NCBI GenBank assembly: GCA_026387235.1
Contig: JAPLMD010000054.1
Span: forward strand, 11,437 to 75,436
Length of the DNA: 64,000 nt
Direction of reading: 5' to 3'
From: Candidatus Omnitrophota bacterium
GTDB taxonomy: Bacteria; Omnitrophota; Gorgyraeia; Gorgyraeales; Gorgyraeaceae
Shown here: positions 2,089 to 58,823 of the stretch, one piece after another
Layout of the letters: the number at the start of each line of letters is the position of its first letter
Position numbering within the stretch: the stretch's first letter is position 1
Notes under the pieces: generated by a model
The model's database searches: none
What the model was told of the DNA's origin: nothing
The model's input: the letters and a program-made list of their open reading frames with translations, nothing else
Program-made: the position numbers and the translations under genes

Positions 2089-4419
2089 TTAATTGGATGA
2101 AATTTCCACTCTATCAAGTTCTTGTATGACATTAAAATCGCTGTCAGCCAAAGGCTTTGTTACTATAAAGCTGTCAAAAACCTTGGTTGTCTTTAATGCG
2201 GATATCTTTATGTTGTCTCTATATACGTCGAATATCTGGCCTTCTACGATACCATTGGCTTTGCTGAAATCGAGCCAGACATCCCTACTGGCTGCATCTT
2301 TGCCTATTACAGCTCCTGAGGTTTTCTCAACCATTAATTCTGAAGCAATTTTTAGACTGCCGACTTCCGGCGCAGGAATATCTGCGCTGGAAATATTTTT
2401 ATTTTCAGATTCACCAACCTCTTTTTTAACCGCTCTTGGCCCTTCTTCCGCCTGGCCTGAGCGTTTTGTTTCTCTTTGCAATCCTCTCGCTGCTGCTTTT
2501 TTATCCAACTCTAGATCTTGACTATATTCTGTCTCTTCTAATTTTACCTCTGCAGTTTTCAATGCGAGCGCTTTTTTTAACTGAAGCTTAAGCGCGTTAT
2601 TAACGTCTTCTAATGTTCTCTTCTCAAAATCAAATGAATTCGTTTTTAACGCATATTCTGCCTTAAGATTTTCCAATATATTAATTCGTGATTCCAAAAA
2701 TGACTTTTCCTTTTCTACTGCAGCTATCTCTTCGTAAAGCCGCATCTCTGTTTTTTTCTTTTCTTTATTCAAAAGTTCATATTCTTCCTTAAGTTTAGAA
2801 TCTGCGTTTGCAAGCGCAGAAATCTCTAACCTTAACTTTGCTTCAGATTCTTCTTTTGATTTCTCAGCAATAGCATGTTGGTCGCTAAACAAGGCTATTT
2901 TTTTATTTAACTCTGCTATATTGTCGTCTTTGGCCTTGCTTAAATTAGTTATGTCTGAATCAAGTCTAAATTTTAAATCTTCTTTCTCTTTATTCAAAGA
3001 AGATATTTCCGCCTTCAATTGAGATTCGCTGTCTTCTTTGGCCTTTTCCGATTTTTTAAGCTGGTCGCTCAGATAGGATATCTGACTATATAATTTTTGC
3101 TCTCCGTCTTCCTTATATTTGACTAAAGAAGAGATGTACTTTAAGTTTGATTCAGAGTCCTCTTTTTCTGCGCTTAGACTAACAAGTTTGGCGCCAAGAT
3201 CCGCTTTTTCTGTCTCTAATACAGAAATTTGAAGGCTCAATTTAGATTCGTTTTCCTGCTTTTCTGTATTCAAAGAAACAATCTGGCTATTCAAATCGGA
3301 TTTCTCTCTTTCCAAAACAGCTACTTTATTGTTAAGTTCCGATATCAGCTTTTCCTTGCCCTGAATCGCAGTAGCAGTTTCGGATCTTACTCTATTTTCG
3401 TCTTCTTTGCTTAATTTATCCAAAGCCTGCAATTGATTGCTAAGAGTTACTATCTGCGAGTTTAGTTTTAATTCGGAATCGTCTTTTTGTTTTGTCAGAG
3501 CTGCCAATTCCAGCTTTAATTTACCGCTGTTATCTTCGCTCTGCTTGATAAGGTTTGCGAGTTTTTGTTCAAGAGATTCTTTGTCCTTATTTGAAAACGA
3601 GTATTGGCTGCTAAGTGTTTTTATTCTGGAATTTAGCTGCGCTTCCGCGTTTTCTTTATCTTTAGCGAGGCCTGCGATCTGAGCGTTCAGTTTGGAATCT
3701 GAGTCCTGTTTTTCCTTTGCAAGGATGAAGAGTTTTGATTCAAGCTCGTCTTTTTGTTTTGTCAGAGCTGCTAATTCCAGATTTAATTTACCGCTGTTAT
3801 CTTCGTTCTGCTTGACAAGGCTTGCAAGTTCGGAAAGAAGCCTTTGTTCTGTTTCCCTTTGCGTCTGGGCATTTATTTTCTTGATATTCACAAGCTCGCT
3901 GCTCAGGTTGGCGGACAAACTATCTTTTTGCTTGTTTAATTCTATTACTTCCGACAACAATCTCGCATTTTCATTCTGCAAATCGCTCAGTTTGCTGTTT
4001 AATAATTGTTCTCTCTGCGAAGAAGGCGTTTCATGTTCCCCGGATATAAATTTTGATGCGCCAGCGGCTGAAACCACATCTGGAACTATTACCCTGTCTC
4101 CTATTTTTATTGCGAGATTTTTGTCTGTACTAAGAGACCAGGCCTCTGACATTTCAGGCTTTACATCCTTTATGACAAAAGTGGCGAGATATTCGGAACG
4201 CCTGTAAATCTCGACCAAGGCTCCCACTTTTACTTCTTTTTCGCCTAAATCAGTAAAAACAAAACCTGCCTTGTTAGCTGCGTGAAGGACAACGCCTTCC
4301 TTTGAGCCTTTTGCCTGCGCTGGCGGGACTAAACAAGATATGACAAGAAAACAAATTATAGCGAAAACGGCAGCGGTCGTATATGTTTTAACTATTCTGT
4401 TTAAAGGAATATTTAACAC
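2089..4419 (-). CDS. Large secreted or membrane-anchored coiled-coil protein (776 aa) with internal repeats
   Basis: N-terminal hydrophobic signal/anchor (AAVFAIICFLVISCLVPPAQA), a ~100-aa globular region, then ~600 aa of heptad-like K/E/L/S-rich sequence with repeated blocks such as SGKLNLELAALTKQKD. Confidence 0.6.
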   Translation of the reverse strand: MLNIPLNRIVKTYTTAAVFAIICFLVISCLVPPAQAKGSKEGVVLHAANKAGFVFTDLGEKEVKVGALVEIYRRSEYLATFVIKDVKPEMSEAWSLSTDKNLAIKIGDRVIVPDVVSAAGASKFISGEHETPSSQREQLLNSKLSDLQNENARLLSEVIELNKQKDSLSANLSSELVNIKKINAQTQRETEQRLLSELASLVKQNEDNSGKLNLELAALTKQKDELESKLFILAKEKQDSDSKLNAQIAGLAKDKENAEAQLNSRIKTLSSQYSFSNKDKESLEQKLANLIKQSEDNSGKLKLELAALTKQKDDSELKLNSQIVTLSNQLQALDKLSKEDENRVRSETATAIQGKEKLISELNNKVAVLEREKSDLNSQIVSLNTEKQENESKLSLQISVLETEKADLGAKLVSLSAEKEDSESNLKYISSLVKYKEDGEQKLYSQISYLSDQLKKSEKAKEDSESQLKAEISSLNKEKEDLKFRLDSDITNLSKAKDDNIAELNKKIALFSDQHAIAEKSKEESEAKLRLEISALANADSKLKEEYELLNKEKKKTEMRLYEEIAAVEKEKSFLESRINILENLKAEYALKTNSFDFEKRTLEDVNNALKLQLKKALALKTAEVKLEETEYSQDLELDKKAAARGLQRETKRSGQAEEGPRAVKKEVGESENKNISSADIPAPEVGSLKIASELMVEKTSGAVIGKDAASRDVWLDFSKANGIVEGQIFDVYRDNIKISALKTTKVFDSFIVTKPLADSDFNVIQELDRVEISSN
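3479..3831. repeat. Two ~85-bp near-identical direct repeats inside the coiled-coil gene (3479-3563 and 3747-3831)
   Basis: tcgtctttttgttttgtcagagctgcYaattccagMtttaatttaccgctgttatcttcgYtctgcttga occurs twice, ~268 bp apart, and encodes the repeated LELAALTKQKD coiled-coil block. Confidence 0.7.
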
Positions 4420-6429: not shown

Positions 6430-6663
6430 TTACATATTGGCTGATGCTTCCTGGGCCAGAGGCAAGATTGCCTGGACTTCGTCTTTGGTCATTCTCCCGA
6501 GCTTTGCAAACCTGAACGCGCCTTCCTGGTCCCTGTTTTCCCTCACTATCTGTAATTTCTTAGGGCCGTTATTGTAGGAATGGACGCTCACGGTGATTTT
6601 CCCATCATCATTTTCATAAGATTTAGCAAATACTTCCTTATCAAGACTTGCATCGTACGGCAT
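6430..6663 (-). CDS. Small hypothetical protein (77 aa)
   Basis: ORF with RBS gaggagg 6 nt upstream, preceded by the conserved two-hairpin leader element. Confidence 0.4.
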   Translation of the reverse strand: MPYDASLDKEVFAKSYENDDGKITVSVHSYNNGPKKLQIVRENRDQEGAFRFAKLGRMTKDEVQAILPLAQEASANM

Positions 6664-6667
6664 GTTT

Positions 6668-6737
6668 CCTCCTCAAATTTGCAAAGCAAATTTGATCCCG
6701 AGCCGCTCTTATACTCCAGTATATGCGGCGAGGGACC
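6668..6737 (-). promoter_or_regulatory. Conserved two-hairpin leader element, copy 1 (directly upstream of the RBS of the 77-aa gene)
   Basis: Minus strand reads GGTCCCTCGCCGC, a ~20-nt AT-rich stretch, GGCTCGGGATC, then CAAATTTGC-ttt-GCAAATTTG, then GAGGAGG and ATG. The first and third blocks are complementary (11 of 13 pairs). The second hairpin is a perfect 9-bp inverted repeat. Confidence 0.6.
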
Positions 6738-6742
6738 TTTTT

Positions 6743-7933
6743 TTACTCTGTTAGACCAGCTACAAAGCCTGACGCCCATGCCCAGGCAAGATTGTACCCG
6801 CCTCGTTCGCCATTTACATTCAGAATCTCGCCTGCGAAATAAACGCCTTTTTTTAATTTTGATTCGAGAGTAAGTTCCTTGACCTCTCCTGTATCTATCC
6901 CGCCTGCCGTAAACTCTGCTTCGTTCCAACCTCTTGTTCCTATTATATCAAATCTTTTGTCTTTTAGCATCTTTACTATTTTTTCAATATTTGCCCCCCT
7001 GAATAAATCCCTGAAAATAAGGCTGAATTTATTGGGCAATATCCCTATCATTAAATTTTCTGCTGCGAAACCTTTTTGGATCCTGTTTTCAATCTCTTCT
7101 CTAAGCTTTAGCGCGTCAATAAAAGGCACCATATCGATCGAAACGATTACGCCTTTTTTGCGAAGCCTGTTTATGGCTATCGAAACATCCCCGCTCACGT
7201 CCAATATGGCAGTGCCGGACAATCCGTATTTTGTGAAAAGCAATTCTCCTTTCGCTTCTTTTTTTATTTTACCATCTATTACGCTTCTTGCAATACATTG
7301 TATTTTCTGGCCCTGAAGCAGGTGGCAAAATTTGTCTTTTACCAAAAGCGGGACAGCGTTTGGGACAGGCTCTATGATCTTATGGCCGAACGATCCGGCT
7401 AAAGCATAGCAACTCCCGTCAGAGCCAAGGCTCGGATAAGTCTTTCCGCCTCCTGTTATAATAACCCAATCGCCTGATATAGTTTTGCCGCTCCTGGATT
7501 TTACTATAAATCCTTTGGCTGAACCGGCAATACTATTTACTTCAAAGCCAAACTCTATGGGCATCTTTAAATTTTTAAGCTCTTCTTCTAAAACCTTTAA
7601 AACGCTGGATGACTGGTTTGTAACGGGAAAAAGCCTGTCACCTTGCGAATATAACTTCAGCCCAAGCTTATTAAAAAATTTCTCTATATCATCCCGGCCG
7701 CCGAATTTGGAAAATACACTTTTTACAAGGCCTCTTGCTTCTGGATTATAATGCGTCTCGCTTAAATCTTTATTGGAAATATTGCATCTTGCTGCGCCTG
7801 AAATAAGTATTTTCTTGCCGAGCCGCGGCATCTTTTCGCATATTATAACATCTTTACCGCTGCGCCCGGCGCTGATAGCCGCAGTTATTCCTGCTGCTCC
7901 GCCTCCTATAACCGCAATATCAAATTTTTGCAT
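6743..7933 (-). CDS. HI0933-family FAD flavoprotein (BaiN/aminoacetone oxidase-like NAD(FAD)-utilising dehydrogenase)
   Basis: N-terminal FAD fold DIAVIGGGAAGITAAISA; length and overall pattern match the HI0933 family. Confidence 0.7.
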   Translation of the reverse strand: MQKFDIAVIGGGAAGITAAISAGRSGKDVIICEKMPRLGKKILISGAARCNISNKDLSETHYNPEARGLVKSVFSKFGGRDDIEKFFNKLGLKLYSQGDRLFPVTNQSSSVLKVLEEELKNLKMPIEFGFEVNSIAGSAKGFIVKSRSGKTISGDWVIITGGGKTYPSLGSDGSCYALAGSFGHKIIEPVPNAVPLLVKDKFCHLLQGQKIQCIARSVIDGKIKKEAKGELLFTKYGLSGTAILDVSGDVSIAINRLRKKGVIVSIDMVPFIDALKLREEIENRIQKGFAAENLMIGILPNKFSLIFRDLFRGANIEKIVKMLKDKRFDIIGTRGWNEAEFTAGGIDTGEVKELTLESKLKKGVYFAGEILNVNGERGGYNLAWAWASGFVAGLTE

Positions 7934-7943
7934 TTATACATTC

Positions 7944-8006
7944 GCCCCGATAAATCGGGGCTCAGTATTCCGCCCAAGAAACCCTGGGCTTAAGCCCAGG
8001 CGGGCT
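7944..8006. repeat. Two stem-loops plus REP-like repeat copy A (GGCTCAGTATTCCGCCCAAGAAACCCTGGGCTTAAGCCCAGG)
   Basis: gccccgat-aaa-atcggggc (8-bp stem) and cctgggc-ttaa-gcccagg. The same ~50-nt sequence family recurs at 36965-37016 (reverse orientation) and 46661-46700. Confidence 0.6.
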
Positions 8007-9020
8007 TCATTTTCTTATTTTTTTCCTGATATCGTGCTCGTCCTCTATCTCGCCCACTATTTCCTCAAGCAGGTCCTCCATGGTCACCAGGCCCTGAATC
8101 TTGCCATACGAATCAATTATAATGGCCAGGTGAGTGTGGCCTTTCTGGAATTCCTTTAACAGCTCTGCTACATTTTTGGAATCAGGGACAAAGATAGGAG
8201 GATATATTATATCCTGCAGGATCACAAGGTCTCTATTGACCGAAAGATTCAATAAATCCTTCATATTTATAACGCCAATTATATTGTCCGGGTTGTCTTT
8301 ATAAACAGGCAACCTGGAATAGCCTGACTCAAGGACCTTATCCAGTATATCCTCTATATTCGCGCATATATCAATCAAAATCATCCTGTCTTTGGGTATC
8401 ATTACAGTCTTTACAACAGTATCGCTGAATTCAAATACCTTTGTAAGCATTTTGTATTTATCTTTATGCTTCGGACTTTCTTCTTCGCCTATCCTGATGA
8501 GCGCCTTTATCTCGTCTTCCACTACAAGAGACGGCTTGCCTTTTGTACCGCCTCCCAGAAGATTCACTACGAAATTAGTTATAGTCGACAAAATCCTGAC
8601 AACAGGGGATAAAATAATTATAAGATATTTCACTGTCATGGAAAGATATAATGCAATCCTTACAGGTTTTTTCGCAGATAACGTTTTAGCAGCTACTTCA
8701 AAAATTATTATGAGAAAAGAGGCTACGATCGTAGCAAGCAATATGCTTCTGGAATTGCTTCCGCTGAAAGAAACTATCATAACCGTAACTATGGATGCTA
8801 TAAGAGCGTCCACGATATTATTCGCTACAAGAATGGTTCCGAAAAATCTTTCAGGTGTCTCTAGAATTTTTAGTATTATCTTTGCTGGTTTAGACCCGTC
8901 AGCAGCAAGGCGCCTTAATTTTATGATGCTCGCCGCTATAATGGCTGTTTCTGACGCAGCTGTCAAAGCGCCTATCAAAAGTAAAATTACCAGCAATAAA
9001 AGCTCTATGATTATTTTCAT
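8007..9020 (-). CDS. CNNM/DUF21 membrane domain plus CBS-pair protein (HlyC/CorC-family transporter lacking the C-terminal CorC_HlyC domain)
   Basis: Four N-terminal TM helices (DUF21), then a CBS pair (MIPKDRMILIDICANIEDIL... GVINMKDLL). Confidence 0.65.
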   Translation of the reverse strand: MKIIIELLLLVILLLIGALTAASETAIIAASIIKLRRLAADGSKPAKIILKILETPERFFGTILVANNIVDALIASIVTVMIVSFSGSNSRSILLATIVASFLIIIFEVAAKTLSAKKPVRIALYLSMTVKYLIIILSPVVRILSTITNFVVNLLGGGTKGKPSLVVEDEIKALIRIGEEESPKHKDKYKMLTKVFEFSDTVVKTVMIPKDRMILIDICANIEDILDKVLESGYSRLPVYKDNPDNIIGVINMKDLLNLSVNRDLVILQDIIYPPIFVPDSKNVAELLKEFQKGHTHLAIIIDSYGKIQGLVTMEDLLEEIVGEIEDEHDIRKKIRK

Positions 9021-11300: not shown

Positions 11301-12017
11301 ATGTTAGGAGCGCTGATAAATCTACTTTATCCTGTCCTGTGCAGAGTCTGTTCTGAAAAAATAAATGAATTCGACCGTAATATATGCGCTGATTGCGCCA
11401 AAAAGATAAAAGAGCGGCTCCCTCCTTTCTGCATAAAATGCGGAAGGCAGCTCAAAGGAGATCCTGAATTAATGGCTGTATGCCCGGACTGTAAAAAACA
11501 TGCTCCGTATTTTGACAGGGCATGGTCAGCTTGCCATTACGATAATCCGTTAAAAGGCCTTATCCATGATTTCAAATATAAGAAAATATCCTCTCTTTCA
11601 ACAGATTTTACGGCTCTAATTATTGATTTCATGAAAAAATATAACGTCGGCAAAGATTGTCAGATGATTTTATCCATACCAATGCATTCTCGTAGATTAT
11701 TCAAAAGAGAAATTAACCATTCCGACATACTGGCGCAGGGATTAGGAAAAAAGCTGGGTATTTCGTACTCCTCAAACACGCTAAAGAAAACAAAAGATAC
11801 ATTATTTCAAAGTAAACTCAAAAGAGAAGCCAGAATAAAAAATCTCCATTTAAGCTTCTCTCTAAAAGACAGCTCAATTGTCCGCAATAAAAATATACTA
11901 CTTATAGATGACCTTTTCACTACAGGATCCACTGTCAATGAATGCTCAAGGCTTCTTAAAAATTCAGGCGCGCGATACGTGGAAGTAATAACGCTGGCGC
12001 GAGGAGACAGCATATGA
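11283..12017 (+). CDS. comF: ComF-family protein (phosphoribosyltransferase-domain competence protein)
   Basis: N-terminal paired CxxC zinc finger. C-terminal PRTase motif ILLIDDLFTTGSTVNECSRLL. Confidence 0.7.
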   Translation: MCYIYHMLGALINLLYPVLCRVCSEKINEFDRNICADCAKKIKERLPPFCIKCGRQLKGDPELMAVCPDCKKHAPYFDRAWSACHYDNPLKGLIHDFKYKKISSLSTDFTALIIDFMKKYNVGKDCQMILSIPMHSRRLFKREINHSDILAQGLGKKLGISYSSNTLKKTKDTLFQSKLKREARIKNLHLSFSLKDSSIVRNKNILLIDDLFTTGSTVNECSRLLKNSGARYVEVITLARGDSI

Positions 12018-21734: not shown

Positions 21735-22205
21735 TTACGCCCTTCTGATATCTTCTTCTTTTATAATCTTGATCAGTGTTCTTTCGCCGTCTGAATTTTT
21801 TAATGAATCTCTGAAATACTTGTCTTTTAATAATTTCGAGATACGGGCCAGCGCCTTGAGATGCGGGCCTGAAGATTCTACAGGAGCTAATAGAAGGAAA
21901 AATATGTAGGCAGGCTCTCCATCTAATGAATCAAACTTTATGCCGCTTTTAGATATGCCAAAAGCTCCTATAAGCTCGCTCACATATTCACATTTTCCAT
22001 GAGGTATGGCAACGCCCTGGCCGATACCAGTCGAACCAAGGGTTTCTCTGTTTAAAAGCACTTTTACAACAGCGTCTTTGTCTTTAGGCTTGAGCTGGCC
22101 TGATTTAACCAAGAGTTCTATGAGCTCCTTTATAACGCTATTTTTGTCCTGGGATTTTAAATCCGCTGATACTGCCTTCTCGTTTAAAAAATCGAGTATG
22201 TGCAT
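21735..22205 (-). CDS. ptsN: PTS EIIA(Ntr)-type protein (nitrogen-regulatory IIA)
   Basis: EIIA-fructose/Ntr fold with GIGQGVAIPHGK active His; 156 aa. Confidence 0.8.
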   Translation of the reverse strand: MHILDFLNEKAVSADLKSQDKNSVIKELIELLVKSGQLKPKDKDAVVKVLLNRETLGSTGIGQGVAIPHGKCEYVSELIGAFGISKSGIKFDSLDGEPAYIFFLLLAPVESSGPHLKALARISKLLKDKYFRDSLKNSDGERTLIKIIKEEDIRRA

Positions 22206-22210
22206 CTGTT

Positions 22211-22278
22211 CCTCCCAAATTTGCGAAGCAAATTTGATCCCGAGCCGCCCCTATACCTACATATATGCGGCGAGGACC
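22211..22278 (-). promoter_or_regulatory. Conserved two-hairpin leader element, copy 2 (upstream of the ptsN RBS)
   Basis: Minus strand: GGTCCTCGCCGC, AT-rich stretch, GGCGGCTCGGGATCA, CAAATTTGC-ttc-GCAAATTTG, then GGGAGG and ATG. Same architecture as copy 1. Confidence 0.6.
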
Positions 22279-22435: not shown

Positions 22436-22456
22436 TGGAGCGGGAGACGGGGTTCG
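22436..22456 (-). other. 21-nt exact duplicate of the tRNA-Gly 3' end (tRNA fragment / att-like scar)
   Basis: tggagcgggagacggggttcg is identical to 22602-22622 (3' acceptor and T-arm of tRNA-Gly). It sits in a GC-rich spacer ~145 nt downstream of the intact gene. Confidence 0.6.
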
Positions 22457-22601: not shown

Positions 22602-22676
22602 TGGAGCGGGAGACGGGGTTCGAACCCGCGACCTTCTCGTTGGCAACGAGAAGCTCTACCACTGAGCTACTCCCGC
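22602..22676 (-). tRNA. tRNA-Gly (anticodon GCC)
   Basis: Reverse complement folds as a 75-nt cloverleaf: acceptor gcgggag/ctcccgc, anticodon loop ttGCCaa, T-loop ttcgaac, encoded CCA. Confidence 0.85.
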
Positions 22677-22702
22677 GGACATTTATTTTTCTCCATGTAT
22701 TC

Positions 22703-22840
22703 TCAGTCCCGAGTCGCCCTATTTTTTATTTATCTGCGACGAGGGACAAACTAAAGTATCCTTAACTATCTTTTTGGTCCCTCGCGACTATATATAACAG
22801 ATATTGGTCGTTCAGGATCAGTTCTGCCTTCGGCAGAACT
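22703..22840. repeat. Two copies of the conserved hairpin element in inverted orientation (22703-22747 and 22776-22840), between tRNA-Leu and tRNA-Gly
   Basis: tcagtcccgagtcgcc-[AT-rich]-gcgacgagggac, then 28 bp, then ggtccctcgcgac-[AT-rich]-ggtcgttcaggatca-agttctgcc-ttcg-ggcagaact. The stem halves carry compensatory substitutions relative to copies 1-3: GTCGC/GCGAC instead of GCCGC/GCGGC, and GTCCC/GGGAC instead of GGTCC/GGATC. Confidence 0.55.
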
Positions 22841-22924
22841 GGTGCGAGAGGAGGGAGTCGAACCCTCAAGGGTCTCCCCACTAGCTCCTAAGGCTAGCGC
22901 GTCTGCCAATTCCGCCACCCTCGC
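22840..22924 (-). tRNA. tRNA-Leu (anticodon TAG), long variable arm
   Basis: 85-nt cloverleaf: acceptor gcgaggg, anticodon loop ctTAGga, variable stem-loop, T-loop ttcgact, encoded CCA. Confidence 0.8.
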
Positions 22925-22946
22925 CTATATCTGTTTCTGCGGTCCT

Positions 22947-22966
22947 GGTACTCCCAACAGGATTCG
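22947..22966 (-). other. Near-exact duplicate of the tRNA-Lys 3' end (tRNA fragment)
   Basis: tggtactcccaacaggattcg versus the tRNA-Lys 3' end tggtacccccaacaggattcg (one mismatch). It is followed by ttcggcgc as in the tRNA-Gly fragment, so the two spacers are themselves homologous. Confidence 0.55.
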
Positions 22967-23091
22967 GCGCTTTGCCCTTCGGGCAAAGTCGGCCATTCGC
23001 TCTGCTGTCGTCCGCCAATATTCTTGGCAGACTTTTCCTCGCTTCGCTCGGCGCAGAGCTCTATTCGAATCCTGTAACCTGAATAACATTG

Positions 23092-23167
23092 TGGTACCCC
23101 CAACAGGATTCGAACCTGTGACCTTATCATTAAGAGTGATCTGCTCTACCAACTGAGCTATGGGGGC
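23092..23167 (-). tRNA. tRNA-Lys (anticodon CTT)
   Basis: 76-nt cloverleaf: acceptor gccccca, anticodon loop ctCTTaa, T-loop ttcgaat, encoded CCA. Confidence 0.8.
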
Positions 23168-23228
23168 ACAAACGTTAAGCCTAAATGATATCACAGGTTA
23201 AAAACTTCGTCAATAATTTTAATGTATA

Positions 23229-23295
23229 GGTCCCTCACGACTAGATACAAAAAACTATGGTCGTTCGGGATCAAATCCGCCTTTGGCGAGGTCCT
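23229..23295. repeat. Copy of the conserved hairpin element between tRNA-Arg and tRNA-Lys
   Basis: ggtccctcacgac-tagatacaaaaaactat-ggtcgttcgggatca-aatccgcctttggcgaggtcc, matching the GGTCCC/GGGATC and CGAC/GTCG stem halves. Confidence 0.5.
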
Positions 23296-23350
23296 TCGAA
23301 TACTTCCTATTCGGTCGTATTCTCAGGATCAATTTTTGCTTTGCAAAAAT

Positions 23351-23427
23351 TGGCGCGCCCGGGGTGAATCGAACACCCAGCCTACTGGTTCGAAGCCAGC
23401 CGCTCTATCCATTTGAGCTACGGGCGC
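23351..23427 (-). tRNA. tRNA-Arg (anticodon TCG)
   Basis: 77-nt cloverleaf: acceptor gcgcccg, anticodon loop ctTCGaa, T-loop ttcgatt, encoded CCA. The hairpin atttttgc-ttt-gcaaaaat lies immediately 3' of it. Confidence 0.85.
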
Positions 23428-36244: not shown

Positions 36245-36314
36245 CCTCCCAAATTTTGTGAAACAAAATTTGATCCCGAGTCGCCATAGTTTTTACCATC
36301 GGGCGGCGAGGGAC
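36245..36314 (-). promoter_or_regulatory. Conserved two-hairpin leader element, copy 3 (divergent promoter region, upstream of the zinc-ribbon/glpK operon)
   Basis: Minus strand: GTCCCTCGCCGC, AT-rich stretch, GGCGACTCGGGATCA, CAAATTTTG-tttca-CAAAATTTG, then GGGAGG and ATG. No upstream same-strand gene, so it must lie in a promoter or 5' UTR. Confidence 0.6.
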
Positions 36315-36376: not shown

Positions 36377-37681
36377 ATGGAAATAAAAATTGAGAAAATA
36401 ATCTACCCTGGCAAAAGTCTTGGCTTAATCGAAAAACAAACCATCCTTACGGATGAAGGATTGCCCGGCGAAATAGTAGAGATAACCCCTCTTGAAGAAA
36501 AGAAAAATTATATTGAAGCAAAAACAATAAAAATAATAACCCCCTCCATTTCCAGGATAACACCGCGCTGCAGCCATTATCAGGCATGCGGAGCTTATCA
36601 GTATATGGACTATAAAACTCAGCTTACGATCAAAAAATCCCAGTTAAAAGAGATATTTACAGACACATCTATCAGCGTTACTCCTTCTTCCGAAACATGG
36701 GGATATAGGAATAAAATAAAATTAAGCATAATATGGGAAGATAAAAAAGCAAGTCTTGCATATCATGCTCCTGAATACAGGGACAAATTCATTCAGATAG
36801 GTTCATGTTGTTTAGTAAGCAAAAATGTTAATGAGTTTCTATCGTCATTTATGGAAATAGTAAATAAAGAGAATTTGACCTTTATCAAAGAAATTGAAAT
36901 AAGAGAAAGTTATTCTACAAAAGAACTGATGCTTACAATACACCCTTCCGGAAAATCTGAAAATGGAGCCCAACCGAGCTTAAGCCCGGAGTTCCTTGGG
37001 CGGAATACTGAGCGACCATTACCTATCTGCGGCCTAAAGACCGAAGTTTTGTGGCCGCGAATGTACAAACTGCACATATTATTTTCAAAATTCAACATGA
37101 AAAATAATTACATTGAAGAAACAATTTCAGGAAAAACTTTCAGAATAGGCCCTGATTCATTCTTCCAGATTAATGTTCCGATGCTTGAGGCGGTTCTGAA
37201 AGATATGCAAAAATCCACGAGCCCGGATAAAAAAGAAATAATAGCTGACCTATATTGCGGCATAGGCACGTTTGGAATATGTTTAAGCCAATATGCCAAA
37301 GAAGTCATCGGGGTAGAATCCGCTCCGGGCAACATCTCTTTTCTAAAAAGTAATCTGAAATTGAATAAAATTAAAAACTTCAGGCTTTACGAAGGCTCGT
37401 GCGAAAAATTATTCCCTTCGCTTATGACTAGCGGCATTGATACTTTGATACTTGATCCGCCGAGAAAAGGCCTGGATAACATGCTATGCCAAAATATCAT
37501 TCTCAGTTCAGTAAAAAAAATCATATATTTATCATGTAATCCAGCCACTCTCAGCCGCGATTTAAAAATAATGAGCGTTTCCCACGCTATCAAAACTCTT
37601 CACTTTTTTGACTTTTTTCCCCAAACACCTCACATCGAAACCCTGGCAATACTGGAAAAAAGACATTGTAAACCAATATGA
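36377..37681 (+). CDS. RumA/RlmD-family 23S rRNA (uracil-C5)-methyltransferase (TRAM, Fe-S and SAM-MTase domains)
   Basis: TRAM-like N-terminus, Cys cluster (CSHYQACGAY...SCC), MTase motifs DLYCGIGTFGI, SFFQIN, LILDPPRKG. Confidence 0.75.
   Translation: MEIKIEKIIYPGKSLGLIEKQTILTDEGLPGEIVEITPLEEKKNYIEAKTIKIITPSISRITPRCSHYQACGAYQYMDYKTQLTIKKSQLKEIFTDTSISVTPSSETWGYRNKIKLSIIWEDKKASLAYHAPEYRDKFIQIGSCCLVSKNVNEFLSSFMEIVNKENLTFIKEIEIRESYSTKELMLTIHPSGKSENGAQPSLSPEFLGRNTERPLPICGLKTEVLWPRMYKLHILFSKFNMKNNYIEETISGKTFRIGPDSFFQINVPMLEAVLKDMQKSTSPDKKEIIADLYCGIGTFGICLSQYAKEVIGVESAPGNISFLKSNLKLNKIKNFRLYEGSCEKLFPSLMTSGIDTLILDPPRKGLDNMLCQNIILSSVKKIIYLSCNPATLSRDLKIMSVSHAIKTLHFFDFFPQTPHIETLAILEKRHCKPI
36965..37016 (-). 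repeat. REP-like repeat copy B, lying in frame inside the RumA-like CDS
   Basis: Reverse complement ggtcgCTCAGTATTCCGCCCAAGgAACtCcGGGCTTAAGCtCGG matches copy A at 7958-8000. The 51 nt (17 codons) encode GAQPSLSPEFLGRNTER, between the Fe-S and MTase domains. Confidence 0.5.
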
Positions 37682-46395: not shown

Positions 46396-46638
46396 GGCTA
46401 TTTAGACCCCTTGAAAGCATGTTCCTGTAACATTTGGCCTCTATGTACATGGCAATGATCTTCATGATTATAGATGCTCAAGACATGCTTACAATGCGGA
46501 TATTTGCATTTTCTGCCTTTACTGGAAGTCTTTACTTTTTTAATAATTCCTCCTCAATAAAAAAACCGCAAAGGCTAGTTGTCTCCCCTTACGGCTCAAG
46601 ATTTTCTAATCTTTTTATGCTATTTGTTTTATACATTC

Positions 46639-46700
46639 GCCCGCCACAGAAACACTAGCGGGCTCAGTATTTCGCTCCAAGAAACTGCGAACTTTAACCC
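46639..46700 (+). repeat. REP-like repeat copy C with flanking hairpin
   Basis: gcccgc-cacagaaacacta-gcgggc hairpin, then CTCAGTATTtCGCtCCAAGAAACtgcgaaCTTtAaCCC, related to copies A and B. Confidence 0.45.
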
Positions 46701-46746
46701 ATGGAACTTTATTTTACCACGTTATTAAGATTTGTCAAACATAATA

Positions 46747-48714
46747 TCATTCATATCGCAATGCTTCGATCGGGTCCAGCCTAGAAGCTTTTTGGGCAGG
46801 CCAAAGTCCAAAAACTACCCCTATGACTAATGAGAATGTTGTAGCAAGAATTATAGAAGATGACGAAACCTTCACAGCCCATCCTGCAAAAAGCGTTATG
46901 AGTACTGCTATCCCAGTCCCCAGCAAGATACCGAACAGCCCTCCCAGAAATGACATCAATATCGCTTCAATAAGAAACTGCACCAGGATATCTTTATTAT
47001 TCGCGCCGATTGCCTTGCGTAAGCCTATTTCGCGGGTGCGCTCAGATACTGATACCAGCATAATATTCATAATACCTATGCCGCCGACTAAAAGCGATAT
47101 CGCGGCAATAGATCCCAGCAGTAACGACATTGTTTTAGTGGTGGCTTCGAGCGTATTTTTAATGTCAGCCATATTCCGGATTTGAAATGAATCTTCTCCG
47201 TCTTTATTAAGGCGATGCTGTTTTATAATCAGCGAGGATACTTCCTTCTGCGCTATGTCAAGCGAATCAGCGCTTTTCGCCTCCACGTAGATAGAATCAA
47301 CATACTCTTTTCCGAACACCCGGAACATCGCTGTCGTAACCGGAATCACAGCCGTGTCATCTTGGTCATGAAACGTGCTCGCTCCTTTTACGGGCAAAAT
47401 TCCGATAACTTTAAAATTAACCAAATTCAGCTTTATGGTTTCACCGATGGGATTGGCGTCCCCGAAAAGTTCCCTTACAACTGTCGCTCCAAGCACAATA
47501 ACCCGCGAGCGCATTTTTACTTCATCCTCAGTAAAAAATCTTCCCACCGCAGGAGATGAAGCTCGCAGTGTTGCATAATCCGCGCCAACGCCTTCCACCC
47601 TGGTATTCCAGTTCTTATTGGCATAGACCATCTGCCCTCTGCCGGTTACCGAGGGGCTCACGCTATTTACCACATCGGATAATTTAGCGATATCCGCGAC
47701 GTCCTGCAGGGTAAAACGCGTCACGGTGCCGGCCTCCATGGCCACTCCGTGGACTCTTGAAGAACCTGGCCTGACTACCAAAAGATTAGAGCCCAAACTC
47801 GCCAGCTGCTGCTCAATCGACTCTTTTGCCCCTGTCCCAATGGCAAGCATGGCTATCACCGCGGCAACGCCGATCAATATACCGAGGATAGATAAAAATG
47901 AGCGCATCTTATGCGTTACCATGGCCACGCCTGCCTGACGCAGATAATCAAAAAATTCTGTTTCTCTGGCCTTTCTTTCTGATTTAGATAACACAACGTC
48001 TATTATCTTATCGGCCTGGTTTTCTCCGGAACTTTTCATAAAAACCCCTGATTTATCATCAGAAATAATCCTGCCATCGCGCATATGAATAACGCGTTTG
48101 GCATGGCTAGCCACTTCTTTTTCATGGGTAATTATGATAATAGTCTTGCCTTTTTGATTTAAATCCTTAAGAATCGCCATTATCTCTTCCTGGCTTTTTG
48201 AATCAAGGTTTCCTGTCGGCTCATCAGCCATGATAATCAACGGATCATTAACTAATGACCTGGCAATAGCGATGCGCTGCTGCTGGCCTCCGGAAAGCTC
48301 GTTCGGCCTATGATTCATTCTATCAGCAAGGCCGACTTCATTGATTTTCTCCTTGGCCTTTTCTTTTAGATGACGTTTTCCCATGTACACTAAAGGAAGA
48401 ATGACATTTTCTAACGCGGTCATCCTGGGTAACAAATGAAATTGCTGGAATACGAAACCAACCAGCCGATTCCGCACTGCGGATAGCTCATCATCAAAAA
48501 GCTCATTGACCATTCTTTTCCCAAGATAATACTCTCCCGTATCAGGCCTGTCCAGTAAACCCAAAATATGCATCAGCGTAGATTTGCCGGAACCCGACGG
48601 CCCCATAATCGCCACAAACTCGCCCGGAGAGATTGCTAAAGAAATCCCCTGCAAGGCCTTGACTTCTACCTTACCCATATGATAAGTCTTGTAAATATTT
48701 TTTAGTTCAATCAT
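46747..48714 (-). CDS. macB: MacB-type ABC transporter (fused ATPase and FtsX-like permease)
   Basis: Walker [10 protein letters not shown], signature [16 protein letters not shown]-terminal four-TM FtsX domain with large periplasmic loop. Confidence 0.85.
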
Positions 48715-58199: not shown

Positions 58200-58352
58200 A
58201 TAAAACAAAAAACCCTTATGCCAATTGCATAAGGGTTCTACACACTAACTTCCTTCCCTCCGCTGGCATTATCCAGATCAGGTTATTAGGGTAATTCGCT
58301 TTGCACCTGAAGGATGCGTGCGAAACTCTCAGGCCGTTATACGACCTCCCCC
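58200..58352 (-). promoter_or_regulatory. TPP (THI-box) riboswitch with intrinsic terminator
   Basis: Minus strand contains GGGGAG ... CTGAGAG ... ACCCTAATAACCTGATCTGGATAATGCCAGCGGAGGGAAGG (THI-box consensus), then hairpin AACCCTTATGC-aattg-GCATAAGGGTT, then TTTTTTGTTTT, then the RBS of thi4. Confidence 0.85.
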
Positions 58353-58823
58353 AATGTTATATTGTCTAAATTATACTAAAGAGCACTTAAGAAATCAAAC
58401 AAAATTTAAACTAAGTAGACAACCAGAAAGATTCTATTCAGAGAATTTCCTCTGGAGTTTCTATAAGCGAGGAAAGCGCTCTCTATATAAGAGAGGAATT
58501 GGCCAAATATTCGGATATTCTCGCTGATTTAGAGAGGCCTCCTACACAGAGAGCTGAAATGACTATTTTACCGACGGGAACAAACTGCTAACGCCCTAAC
58601 CATCGCAAACGTTAGGAGATAAAGCGCTCCGGCAATCGATATCCGTCGGGGCGTTGTCACAACTCATTGCAGCACAATGAGTTAGAAAGCTGGGGTCCCT
58701 CTCGTATGAGCCGAGGGGAAACCTCTCTGATTTACACAGGCTAATTATATACGCAATACTTCACTATATCAAGAATATTTTGGCTTTAGAGAGGGATTTT
58801 ATGGCGAATTACTGGCCTGGTGA

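Follow-up and report, generated by a model that had tools for sequence, protein, structure and literature searches.

We found that a gene for an RlmD/RumA-like 23S rRNA (uracil-5)-methyltransferase in a genome of Candidatus Omnitrophota contains, in frame, a structured repeat of 102 nucleotides (nt). The gene lies in a stretch of 64,000 nt (positions 11,437 to 75,436 of contig JAPLMD010000054.1, assembly GCA_026387235.1), which is referred to here as the 64-kb window. With a probability of roughly 0.85, the repeat is one copy of a dispersed family of non-autonomous mobile elements of Candidatus Omnitrophota, and the 34 residues it adds are tolerated by the protein as a loop. The insertion of this copy, which we call c2, the existence of the family, its target site, the preservation of the reading frame, and the continued constraint on the host gene were all demonstrated. 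An earlier note on this DNA had suggested a small mobile repeat that can be tolerated within proteins, and this idea was upheld by pairs of filled and empty sites and by further copies within ValRS, TilS, NadE, and MnmA.

The host gene (36377 to 37681, plus strand) encodes 434 amino acids including the insert. Its proposed RumA/RlmD-like identity was confirmed by matches to the TrmA/RumA family in Pfam (PF05958, 2e-31) and to RumA in the PDB (1uwv, 4e-37). The closest relatives of the protein all belong to Candidatus Omnitrophota and are 386 to 405 amino acids long. Aligned with its 18 nearest orthologues (68 to 84% identity), the window protein was unique in carrying 34 additional residues, GAQPSLSPEFLGRNTERPLPICGLKTEVLWPRMY, and in a deeper alignment of 118 sequences (42 to 84% identity), the segment was absent from 117 of 117 orthologues. 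A peptide that spans the insert is, for example, NTERPLPICGLK. The site was also found uninterrupted at the DNA level in the syntenic contig L001, which carries the closest orthologue (86% nucleotide identity across the gene). L001 reads CTGAAA↓ACAAACTG (in a longer reading, CTGAAA↓ACAAACTGCAT; the arrow marks the insertion point), and the window reads CTGAAA, the element (ATGGAGCCC...GCGAATGT), and then ACAAACTG. The comparison of the two is a clean 102-nt insertion with 1 nt of boundary ambiguity, which places c2 at 36963 to 37064 on the plus strand, its limits being ambiguous by 1 to 2 nt. The earlier note had given the insert as 51 nt, or 17 codons, a length that covered the 5′ half only. 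Its observation that the frame stays open was correct, since c2 contributes the last base of Asn196 plus GAQPSLSPEFLGRNTERPLPICGLKTEVLWPRM(Y), i.e., 34 codons reading GAQPS...WPRMY.

The insert falls within a weakly conserved part of the central domain (query residues 153 to 252) that is flanked by two RumA-aligning stretches. This part does not itself align to Escherichia coli RumA, and orthologues carry indels there; the proposed position in the linker between the Fe-S and methyltransferase domains was thus roughly right. The host gene is under continuing purifying selection, as its ratio of nonsynonymous to synonymous substitution rates (dN/dS) was 0.16 between the window and L001, compared with 0.13 to 0.15 for other pairs and 0.14 for a neighboring TonB-dependent receptor gene used as a control. 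An AlphaFold2 model of the protein, made with the 118-sequence alignment, had a mean predicted local distance difference test score (pLDDT) of 92.9 and a predicted template modeling score of 0.89; a run with 19 sequences had given a pLDDT of 52 and was unusable. The sole low-confidence internal stretch of the model, at residues ~191 to 225 (pLDDT 54 to 63, mostly coil), is the insert, which sits between a strand (184 to 190) and a helix (222 to 238).

Other palindromes were observed in the same variable region of other RlmD-like orthologues. The gene for orthologue P0025 in locus L123 has two GC-rich perfect palindromes (3536 to 3592 and 3631 to 3659) in frame, which encode SRGQPASASRRRGGACLSP and VCKGGFETRPY, and the orthologues P0017 and P0020 bear related inserts. 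The same protein loop is colonized by several palindrome families across Omnitrophota.

Consistent with the earlier note, the window holds three related copies of the repeat, and their similarity is far beyond chance. A 22-mer, CTCAGTATTCCGCCCAAGAAAC, at 7961 to 7982 (plus strand) recurs with one mismatch at 36991 to 37012 (minus strand), for which shuffled sequences gave an expectation of 0.00, and a repeat search recovered a gapless inverted pair of 69 nt with 81% complementarity (7953 to 8021 and 36952 to 37020). An nhmmer profile made from the three copies, c1, c2, and c3, matched exactly those three across the window. The family extends well beyond it: the 18-nt core, CTTGGGCGGAATACTGAG, was found in 48 stretches of a species-representative genome collection, nearly all from metagenome-assembled genomes (MAGs) of Candidatus Omnitrophota, and in 71 stretches of metagenome sequence; 49 of the latter are additional full copies. 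At least 11 genomes are involved, with about 28 copies in JAHJGB01, 8 in UBA10183, and 4 in GWA2_41_15. After duplicates were removed, 73 distinct insertion sites were left. A scan of viral contigs for the core gave 0 matches. A profile of the inserted peptide retrieved nothing from a collection of 5.8 billion proteins, since too few 5-residue words were shared with any candidate, and the diversity of host proteins was therefore taken from the DNA loci. Full-text literature searches returned no description of such repeats in Omnitrophota. This is a new family of a known kind, apparently undescribed. We also noted that L009 has two copies head to tail (2837 to 2960, minus strand) with a run of N between them in the assembly, and that several copies lie at contig ends (L014, L051, L063, L089, L097, and L107); these repeats probably break MAG assemblies.

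Read along the local genes, the unit consists of ATGGAGCC, hairpin 1, an invariant GGAATACTGAG, hairpin 2, and CGAATGT, for a total of 73 to 102 nt; the alignment of the window copies shows GTTCCTTGGGCGGAATACTGAG between the two hairpins. The earlier note had seen a single REP-like (repetitive extragenic palindromic) sequence that lies next to a GC hairpin. However, aligning the copies together with their flanks showed that the hairpin belongs to the unit, which combines two hairpins. Terminal inverted repeats are absent: the 5′ end (ATGGAGCCCACC) does not resemble the 3′ end when the latter is read as its reverse complement (ACATTCGCGGCC). The copies fall into length groups of 102, 81, and 73 to 78 nt, matching three discrete hairpin-2 modules, namely, type C (CGGCCA...TGGCCG, enclosing a nested hairpin), type B (CCCGCCATTGGTTTCTGTGGCGGG), and type A (CCCCGATTTATCGGGG). 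The copy c2 is of type C. Its hairpin 1 (36968 to 37001) has an outer stem, GCCCA/TGGGC, around an inner stem with the consensus CCCGGGC-TAAA-GCCCGGG, which is partly decayed in c2 (CCGAGC/GCCCGG). The single-stranded invariant core (36995 to 37012), which holds a TGA stop in the third sense frame, lies 5′ of the 45-nt hairpin 2 (37013 to 37057). The latter has the outer stem CGGCCA/TGGCCG and the nested inner hairpin of its type, and it is also decayed (CGACCA..., GCGGCC/GACCGAAG). The element closes with CGAATGT (37058 to 37064), which is 97 to 100% conserved at the 73 sites. All these parts are on the plus strand, as are the target flanks on either side, GAAA (36959 to 36962) and ACAAA (37065 to 37069; family consensus ATAAA), which are native gene sequence present in the empty site of L001.

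Across the family, the single-stranded core and CGAATGT were 97 to 100% invariant, while the hairpin stems varied with frequent compensatory pairs. Core positions 34 to 50 were 98 to 100% conserved over 49 distinct 5′ halves; over the same set, hairpin 1 had 80 to 100% of its cells paired, with compensatory pairs (TA/AT/GC) in some cases. For type C, the inner stem occurs in the compensatory variants GCACCC/GGGTGC, GCGGCC/GGCCGC, GCGCCA/TGGCGC, and GCGGTC/GACCGC. Among the fetched loci, the CGAATGT 3′ end was never seen without an upstream core, and the element thus behaves as a single unit. A search of Rfam 15 with c1 and c2 gave no match at gathering thresholds or at an E value of ≤10, the best score being 16 bits against a threshold of 50. 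Some copies have other small palindromic elements nested either within hairpin 1 or inside the hairpin-2 loop: a palindrome of ~20 nt, CCTGCC...GGCAGGCAGG, precedes the core in L011, L022, L045, L056, and L076, and one of ~50 nt, CCCTCGACTTCGCTCGGGATG...GTCGAACC, occurs in L007, L012, L046, L050, L066, L081, L109, and L112. This suggests a community of small elements inserting into one another.

The window has two other copies. c1 (7938 to 8010, minus strand; 73 nt, type A hairpin 2) lies between two co-oriented minus-strand genes; its ATGA provides the TGA stop (8007 to 8009) of the upstream open reading frame (ORF) at 8007 to 9020, and the start codon of the ORF at 6743 to 7933 comes 4 nt past its 3′ end. 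Four related lineages carry an element at the c1 site, all with identical flanks and the same variant 5′ half. Hairpin 2 is of type A in the window and in L092/L090, which have the identical element, and of type C in L013 and L046; either hairpin 2 was converted between copies or members of the same subfamily hit the site independently. c3 (46633 to 46712, minus strand) is a degenerate copy of 80 nt that starts with ATAAAG..., has lost hairpin 1, and retains a type B hairpin 2. It is intergenic, beginning 34 nt beyond the stop of the minus-strand ORF at 46747 to 48714, and neither an empty nor a filled orthologue of its site was found in L115, as the intergenic region there lacks homology. No more obvious insertions emerged when the window was scanned for other GC-rich hairpins inside ORFs.

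The flanks of the 73 sites define a sharp 9-nt target, GAAA↓ATAAA, in which GAAA is conserved at 67 to 90% and ATAAA at 84 to 97% (left, G49 A56 A62 A66; right, A71 T70 A61 A69 A63). A second filled/empty pair was found in the same gene family as c2: the RlmD-like gene of UBA10183 (L028, also recovered as L115) is filled after ...IWE, and this point is empty in the window (GGGAAG↓ATAAAAAAGC) and in L001 (GGAAAA↓ATAAAAAGGC). On the matter of target-site duplications, which the earlier note had raised, none of a fixed length was found and none exceeded 2 nt, the two filled/empty pairs showing a junction repeat of at most 1 to 2 nt. AT is present at both junctions in nearly all copies (70 to 73 of the 73 sites). 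When the right junction varies (GT, AG, or AC), the left one stays AT in four or five copies, and one copy, L054, has AC at both. Since the left junction is usually constant when the right one varies, we read the AT as the start of the element plus the target flank, not as a duplication.

About 24 of the 73 sites read through an ORF, 18 in the sense orientation and ~6 in antisense. Host genes were identified by a crude ORF analysis and then by Pfam scans; 27 sites had been classed as read-through, and the 3 whose length is not a multiple of three proved to be misclassified shadow ORFs. Every genuine read-through copy (24/24) is a multiple of three and stop-free, compared with 25 multiples of three among the remaining 46 sites. 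For about a dozen sites, the host gene was confirmed by Pfam domains that either flank the insert on both sides or extend across it. These hosts are, in sense, ValRS (the same site in two species), TilS, NadE (glutamine-dependent NAD synthetase), MnmA, a PyrK-like subunit, and the RlmD-like protein (twice), and, in antisense, a radical SAM/DUF6873 protein and a GT2 glycosyltransferase. Other Pfam-annotated hosts, in which the match is confined to one side of the insert or the evidence for both sides is weaker, are a radical-SAM protein (L005), an Rce1-like protease, YfhO, a protein with a GtrA domain, and, in antisense, DUF3786. With about a third of the sites in frame through an ORF, the analogy that the earlier note drew to Rickettsia palindromic elements (RPE) holds for the phenomenon.

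The element is compatible with translation in two of its three sense frames. The third is closed by the TGA in the invariant core, and whether each of the other two is open depends on the hairpin-1 loop (CTAAAG versus CTTAAG/CTCAAG); every intragenic copy has a loop variant that is open in the frame of its host. At another ~24 sites, the upstream gene ends within the element. Where the element splits an AAA-TAA stop, it carries the ATGAAG variant, restoring the stop as A-TGA, at 12 of 12 sites, c1 being one of them, but this variant is found in only 17 of 64 other copies (Fisher P = 3e-5 on 9 automatically counted sites). Frame and stop patterns of this kind would be expected from selection acting on translated sequence, suggesting that the insert in c2 is translated. 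As the master copies are multiples of three and can be stop-free in two of the three sense frames, the insertion would have added 34 residues and left the gene functional.

The following account treats the family as a mobile element. The element lands in the short A-rich target, which in an AT-rich genome occurs in coding stretches rich in Glu, Asn, and Lys and at AAA-TAA-ATG gene junctions. c2 landed in GAA-AAY-AAA in the variable central region of the RlmD-like gene, where the added residues would be translated as a surface loop while the gene stayed functional. Selfish mobility is indicated by the presence and absence of copies among close relatives and by their scatter in unrelated genes in both orientations. 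The decay of copies (c3 is degenerate and the stems of c2 are mismatched) and the palindromes nested in others are likewise as expected for relics of selfish elements. Mobilization would occur in trans by a hairpin-recognizing single-strand HUH/Y1 transposase, as for the palindrome-associated transposable elements (PATEs) of the IS200/IS605 type or for REP sequences moved by REP-associated tyrosine transposases (RAYTs). [quoted passage not shown]

Several observations weigh against this account. No IS200-type TnpA was found by tblastn in ~0.85 Mb of Omnitrophota loci (8 to 14 kb around each copy), nor does a long internal segment bound any copy. Conservation extends to both target flanks, as would also suit a recombinase reading both sides; in classical IS200/IS605 elements, the 5′ flank is the only one constrained (PMC7290912). 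The orientation of copies that overlap coding sequence is ~42 sense to 7 antisense, a bias that exceeds target availability (GAAAATAAA occurs 38 times in sense and 21 in antisense); an RNA-level role or transcription-coupled insertion may lie behind it. Frame statistics, finally, are the basis on which the insert is predicted to be translated. As a separate candidate, the element was considered as keeping a relic of an IS200 tnpA gene, since the reverse complement of its core encodes LSIPPK, a conserved motif beside the HUH histidines of IS200-type TnpA. Eight metagenome matches of the core are genuine IS200-type TnpA genes from unrelated, mostly GC-richer organisms (L060, L064, L071, L082, L086, L096, L111, and L120). 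These insertion sequences have no other feature in common with the element, their ends and hairpins being different, and the resemblance was rejected as a coincidence.

A bolder version, which we advance tentatively, is that these repeats form a previously unrecognized class of site-specific, hairpin-modular elements adapted to life inside genes, perhaps moved by a type of enzyme not yet linked to such repeats. It is prompted by the master lengths in multiples of three, the loop variants that open two sense frames, the stop-restoring ATGA 5′ end, and the hairpin-2 module that differs between apparently orthologous copies, as well as by the several unrelated palindrome families that also colonize the same protein loop across species.

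For the mobilization step alone, an alternative to a HUH/Y1 transposase, although an improbable one, is a site-specific recombinase (of the IS110/IS1111-type DEDD or the serine kind) that reads both flanks and acts at a 2-nt core shared with the element. The conserved GAAA and AAA flanks, the AT at both junctions in 70 to 73 of 73 sites, the absence of terminal inverted repeats, and the AC at both junctions of L054 would all suit such an enzyme. On the other hand, the four or five variant copies read AT/GT, AT/AG, or AT/AC, which argues against a duplicated core, and no gene of this kind was seen adjoining any copy.

Somewhat less probable still, as an account of the whole family, is that the element is mainly a functional cis-acting operon RNA, i.e., an mRNA stabilizer, a processing site, or a translational-coupling spacer resembling REP or mycobacterial interspersed repetitive units (MIRU), with the intragenic copies as by-products. 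About 70% of the copies are co-oriented with both neighbors and none lies between convergent or divergent genes; in many cases the position is exactly between one gene's stop and the following gene's ribosome-binding site or start, often 4 to 22 nt upstream of it. The 17-nt single-stranded core and CGAATGT are 97 to 100% invariant while the hairpins covary. Because of these positions just upstream of the next ribosome-binding site and of the sense bias beyond target availability, we keep an RNA-level role as a minority explanation. However, presence differs among close relatives, copies lie within unrelated housekeeping genes in both orientations, some are degenerate (c3) or have other palindromes nested in them, and Rfam gave no match. 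The enrichment at AAA-TAA-ATG junctions is accounted for by the target alone.

Removal or skipping of the 102 nt on the way to the protein, either as a very small intron-like element or through ribosomal bypass, is very unlikely. A GC-rich structured insert in an AT-rich gene superficially resembles the bypass elements of yeast mitochondria, but the read-through copies all have lengths in multiples of three and no stops, with stop-creating loop variants excluded in the frame used, neither of which would be needed if the insert were removed, and Rfam has no ribozyme or intron match to it. We give hardly any credence to an assembly artefact, in which a repeat collapsed into the wrong place, or to an ancestral segment lost in relatives: the exact window protein is missing from the gene-position protein collection and c2 turned up at this site in no other assembly, but the junctions are base-precise and in frame, equivalent in-frame copies exist at other sites in independent assemblies (including the same gene in UBA10183, recovered twice, as L028 and L115), and ancestral loss would need the same exact deletion in 117 orthologues.

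As a mobile element, the Omnitrophota repeat shares traits with several known systems. RPE (Ogata et al. 2000, as summarized in PMC10969869 and PMC3184786) are also structured, ~100 nt long, and dispersed in tens of copies that decay, with a large share in frame in unrelated housekeeping genes, where they are borne as added peptide segments, and others intergenic. This resemblance is functional, i.e., a repeated palindromic unit in frame in many unrelated genes, and the two are likened by description, not by sequence homology. Unlike RPE, which belong to Alphaproteobacteria, the Omnitrophota element has two different hairpins, an invariant single-stranded core, a 9-nt target, and an exchangeable hairpin-2 module, and it often supplies the stop of the upstream gene. 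The IS200/IS605 elements with their ends-only PATE derivatives and the REP/RAYT systems are described in PMC7290912 and PMC3184786. PATEs likewise have no terminal inverted repeats or duplication, a distinct hairpin near each end, and orientation-specific insertion beside a short specific sequence, which for PATEs is a tetra- or pentanucleotide 5′ of the element, the other flank being free; the Omnitrophota element differs in having both flanks conserved, in being shorter than typical PATEs, and in that no cognate TnpA was found in the ~0.85 Mb of flanking loci. REP sequences are extragenic imperfect palindromes of 20 to 40 nt, usually in inverted doublets, that flank a RAYT gene, whereas about one-third of the present copies are intragenic, and the copies are single units with two unlike hairpins and without doublets.

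MIRU (Supply et al. 1997, as described in PMC3184786) are similar in being 40 to 100 nt long, in lying between co-oriented operon genes, and in having ends that overlap the neighboring stop and start codons. They form variable-number tandem arrays, in contrast to the Omnitrophota element, which is always single, is also intragenic, and has a defined target. [quoted passage not shown] Like the Omnitrophota element, they are non-autonomous, structured, and sometimes intragenic with open frames, and BOX is also modular; the Omnitrophota element has neither terminal inverted repeats nor a target-site duplication and is thus not a MITE in the strict sense.

Colonization of housekeeping genes by in-frame palindromic repeats has been regarded until now as largely a peculiarity of Rickettsia. 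The same phenomenon, with a different element, in free-living or episymbiotic Omnitrophota suggests that this is a way in which selfish DNA more generally adds loops to proteins. If the class adapted to genes were real, Omnitrophota would be a second and independent case of the Rickettsia kind, as well as a natural system for the origin of new peptide segments. In practical terms, proteins become longer and predicted stops and starts are displaced by these repeats, which can also fragment MAG assemblies and lead annotation and orthologue alignments astray in a phylum that is known from metagenomes only. The modular hairpins and the sharp target offer a handle for finding the mobilizing enzyme.

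The window also contains a second, unrelated repeat family (6660 to 6733, 22202 to 22275, and 36261 to 36314 on the plus strand; 23230 to 23276 on the minus strand) with the hairpin ...AAATTTGATCCCGAGCCGC-loop-GCGGCGAGG.... The copies whose flanks were read by eye are intergenic and immediately upstream of a ribosome-binding site, and one copy of the family lies directly upstream of the RlmD-like gene, in the intergenic region. A cluster of four tRNA genes and a thiamine pyrophosphate riboswitch occur at 22605 to 23427 and 58238 to 58362 (both minus strand). Short duplicates of tRNA 3′ portions lie close by (22436 to 22456 and 22946 to 22979) and may be tRNA fragments. A 100-nt direct repeat with 89% identity (3464 to 3563 and 3731 to 3830, 267 nt apart) is found within the minus-strand ORF at 2089 to 4419 and is probably an internal coding repeat.

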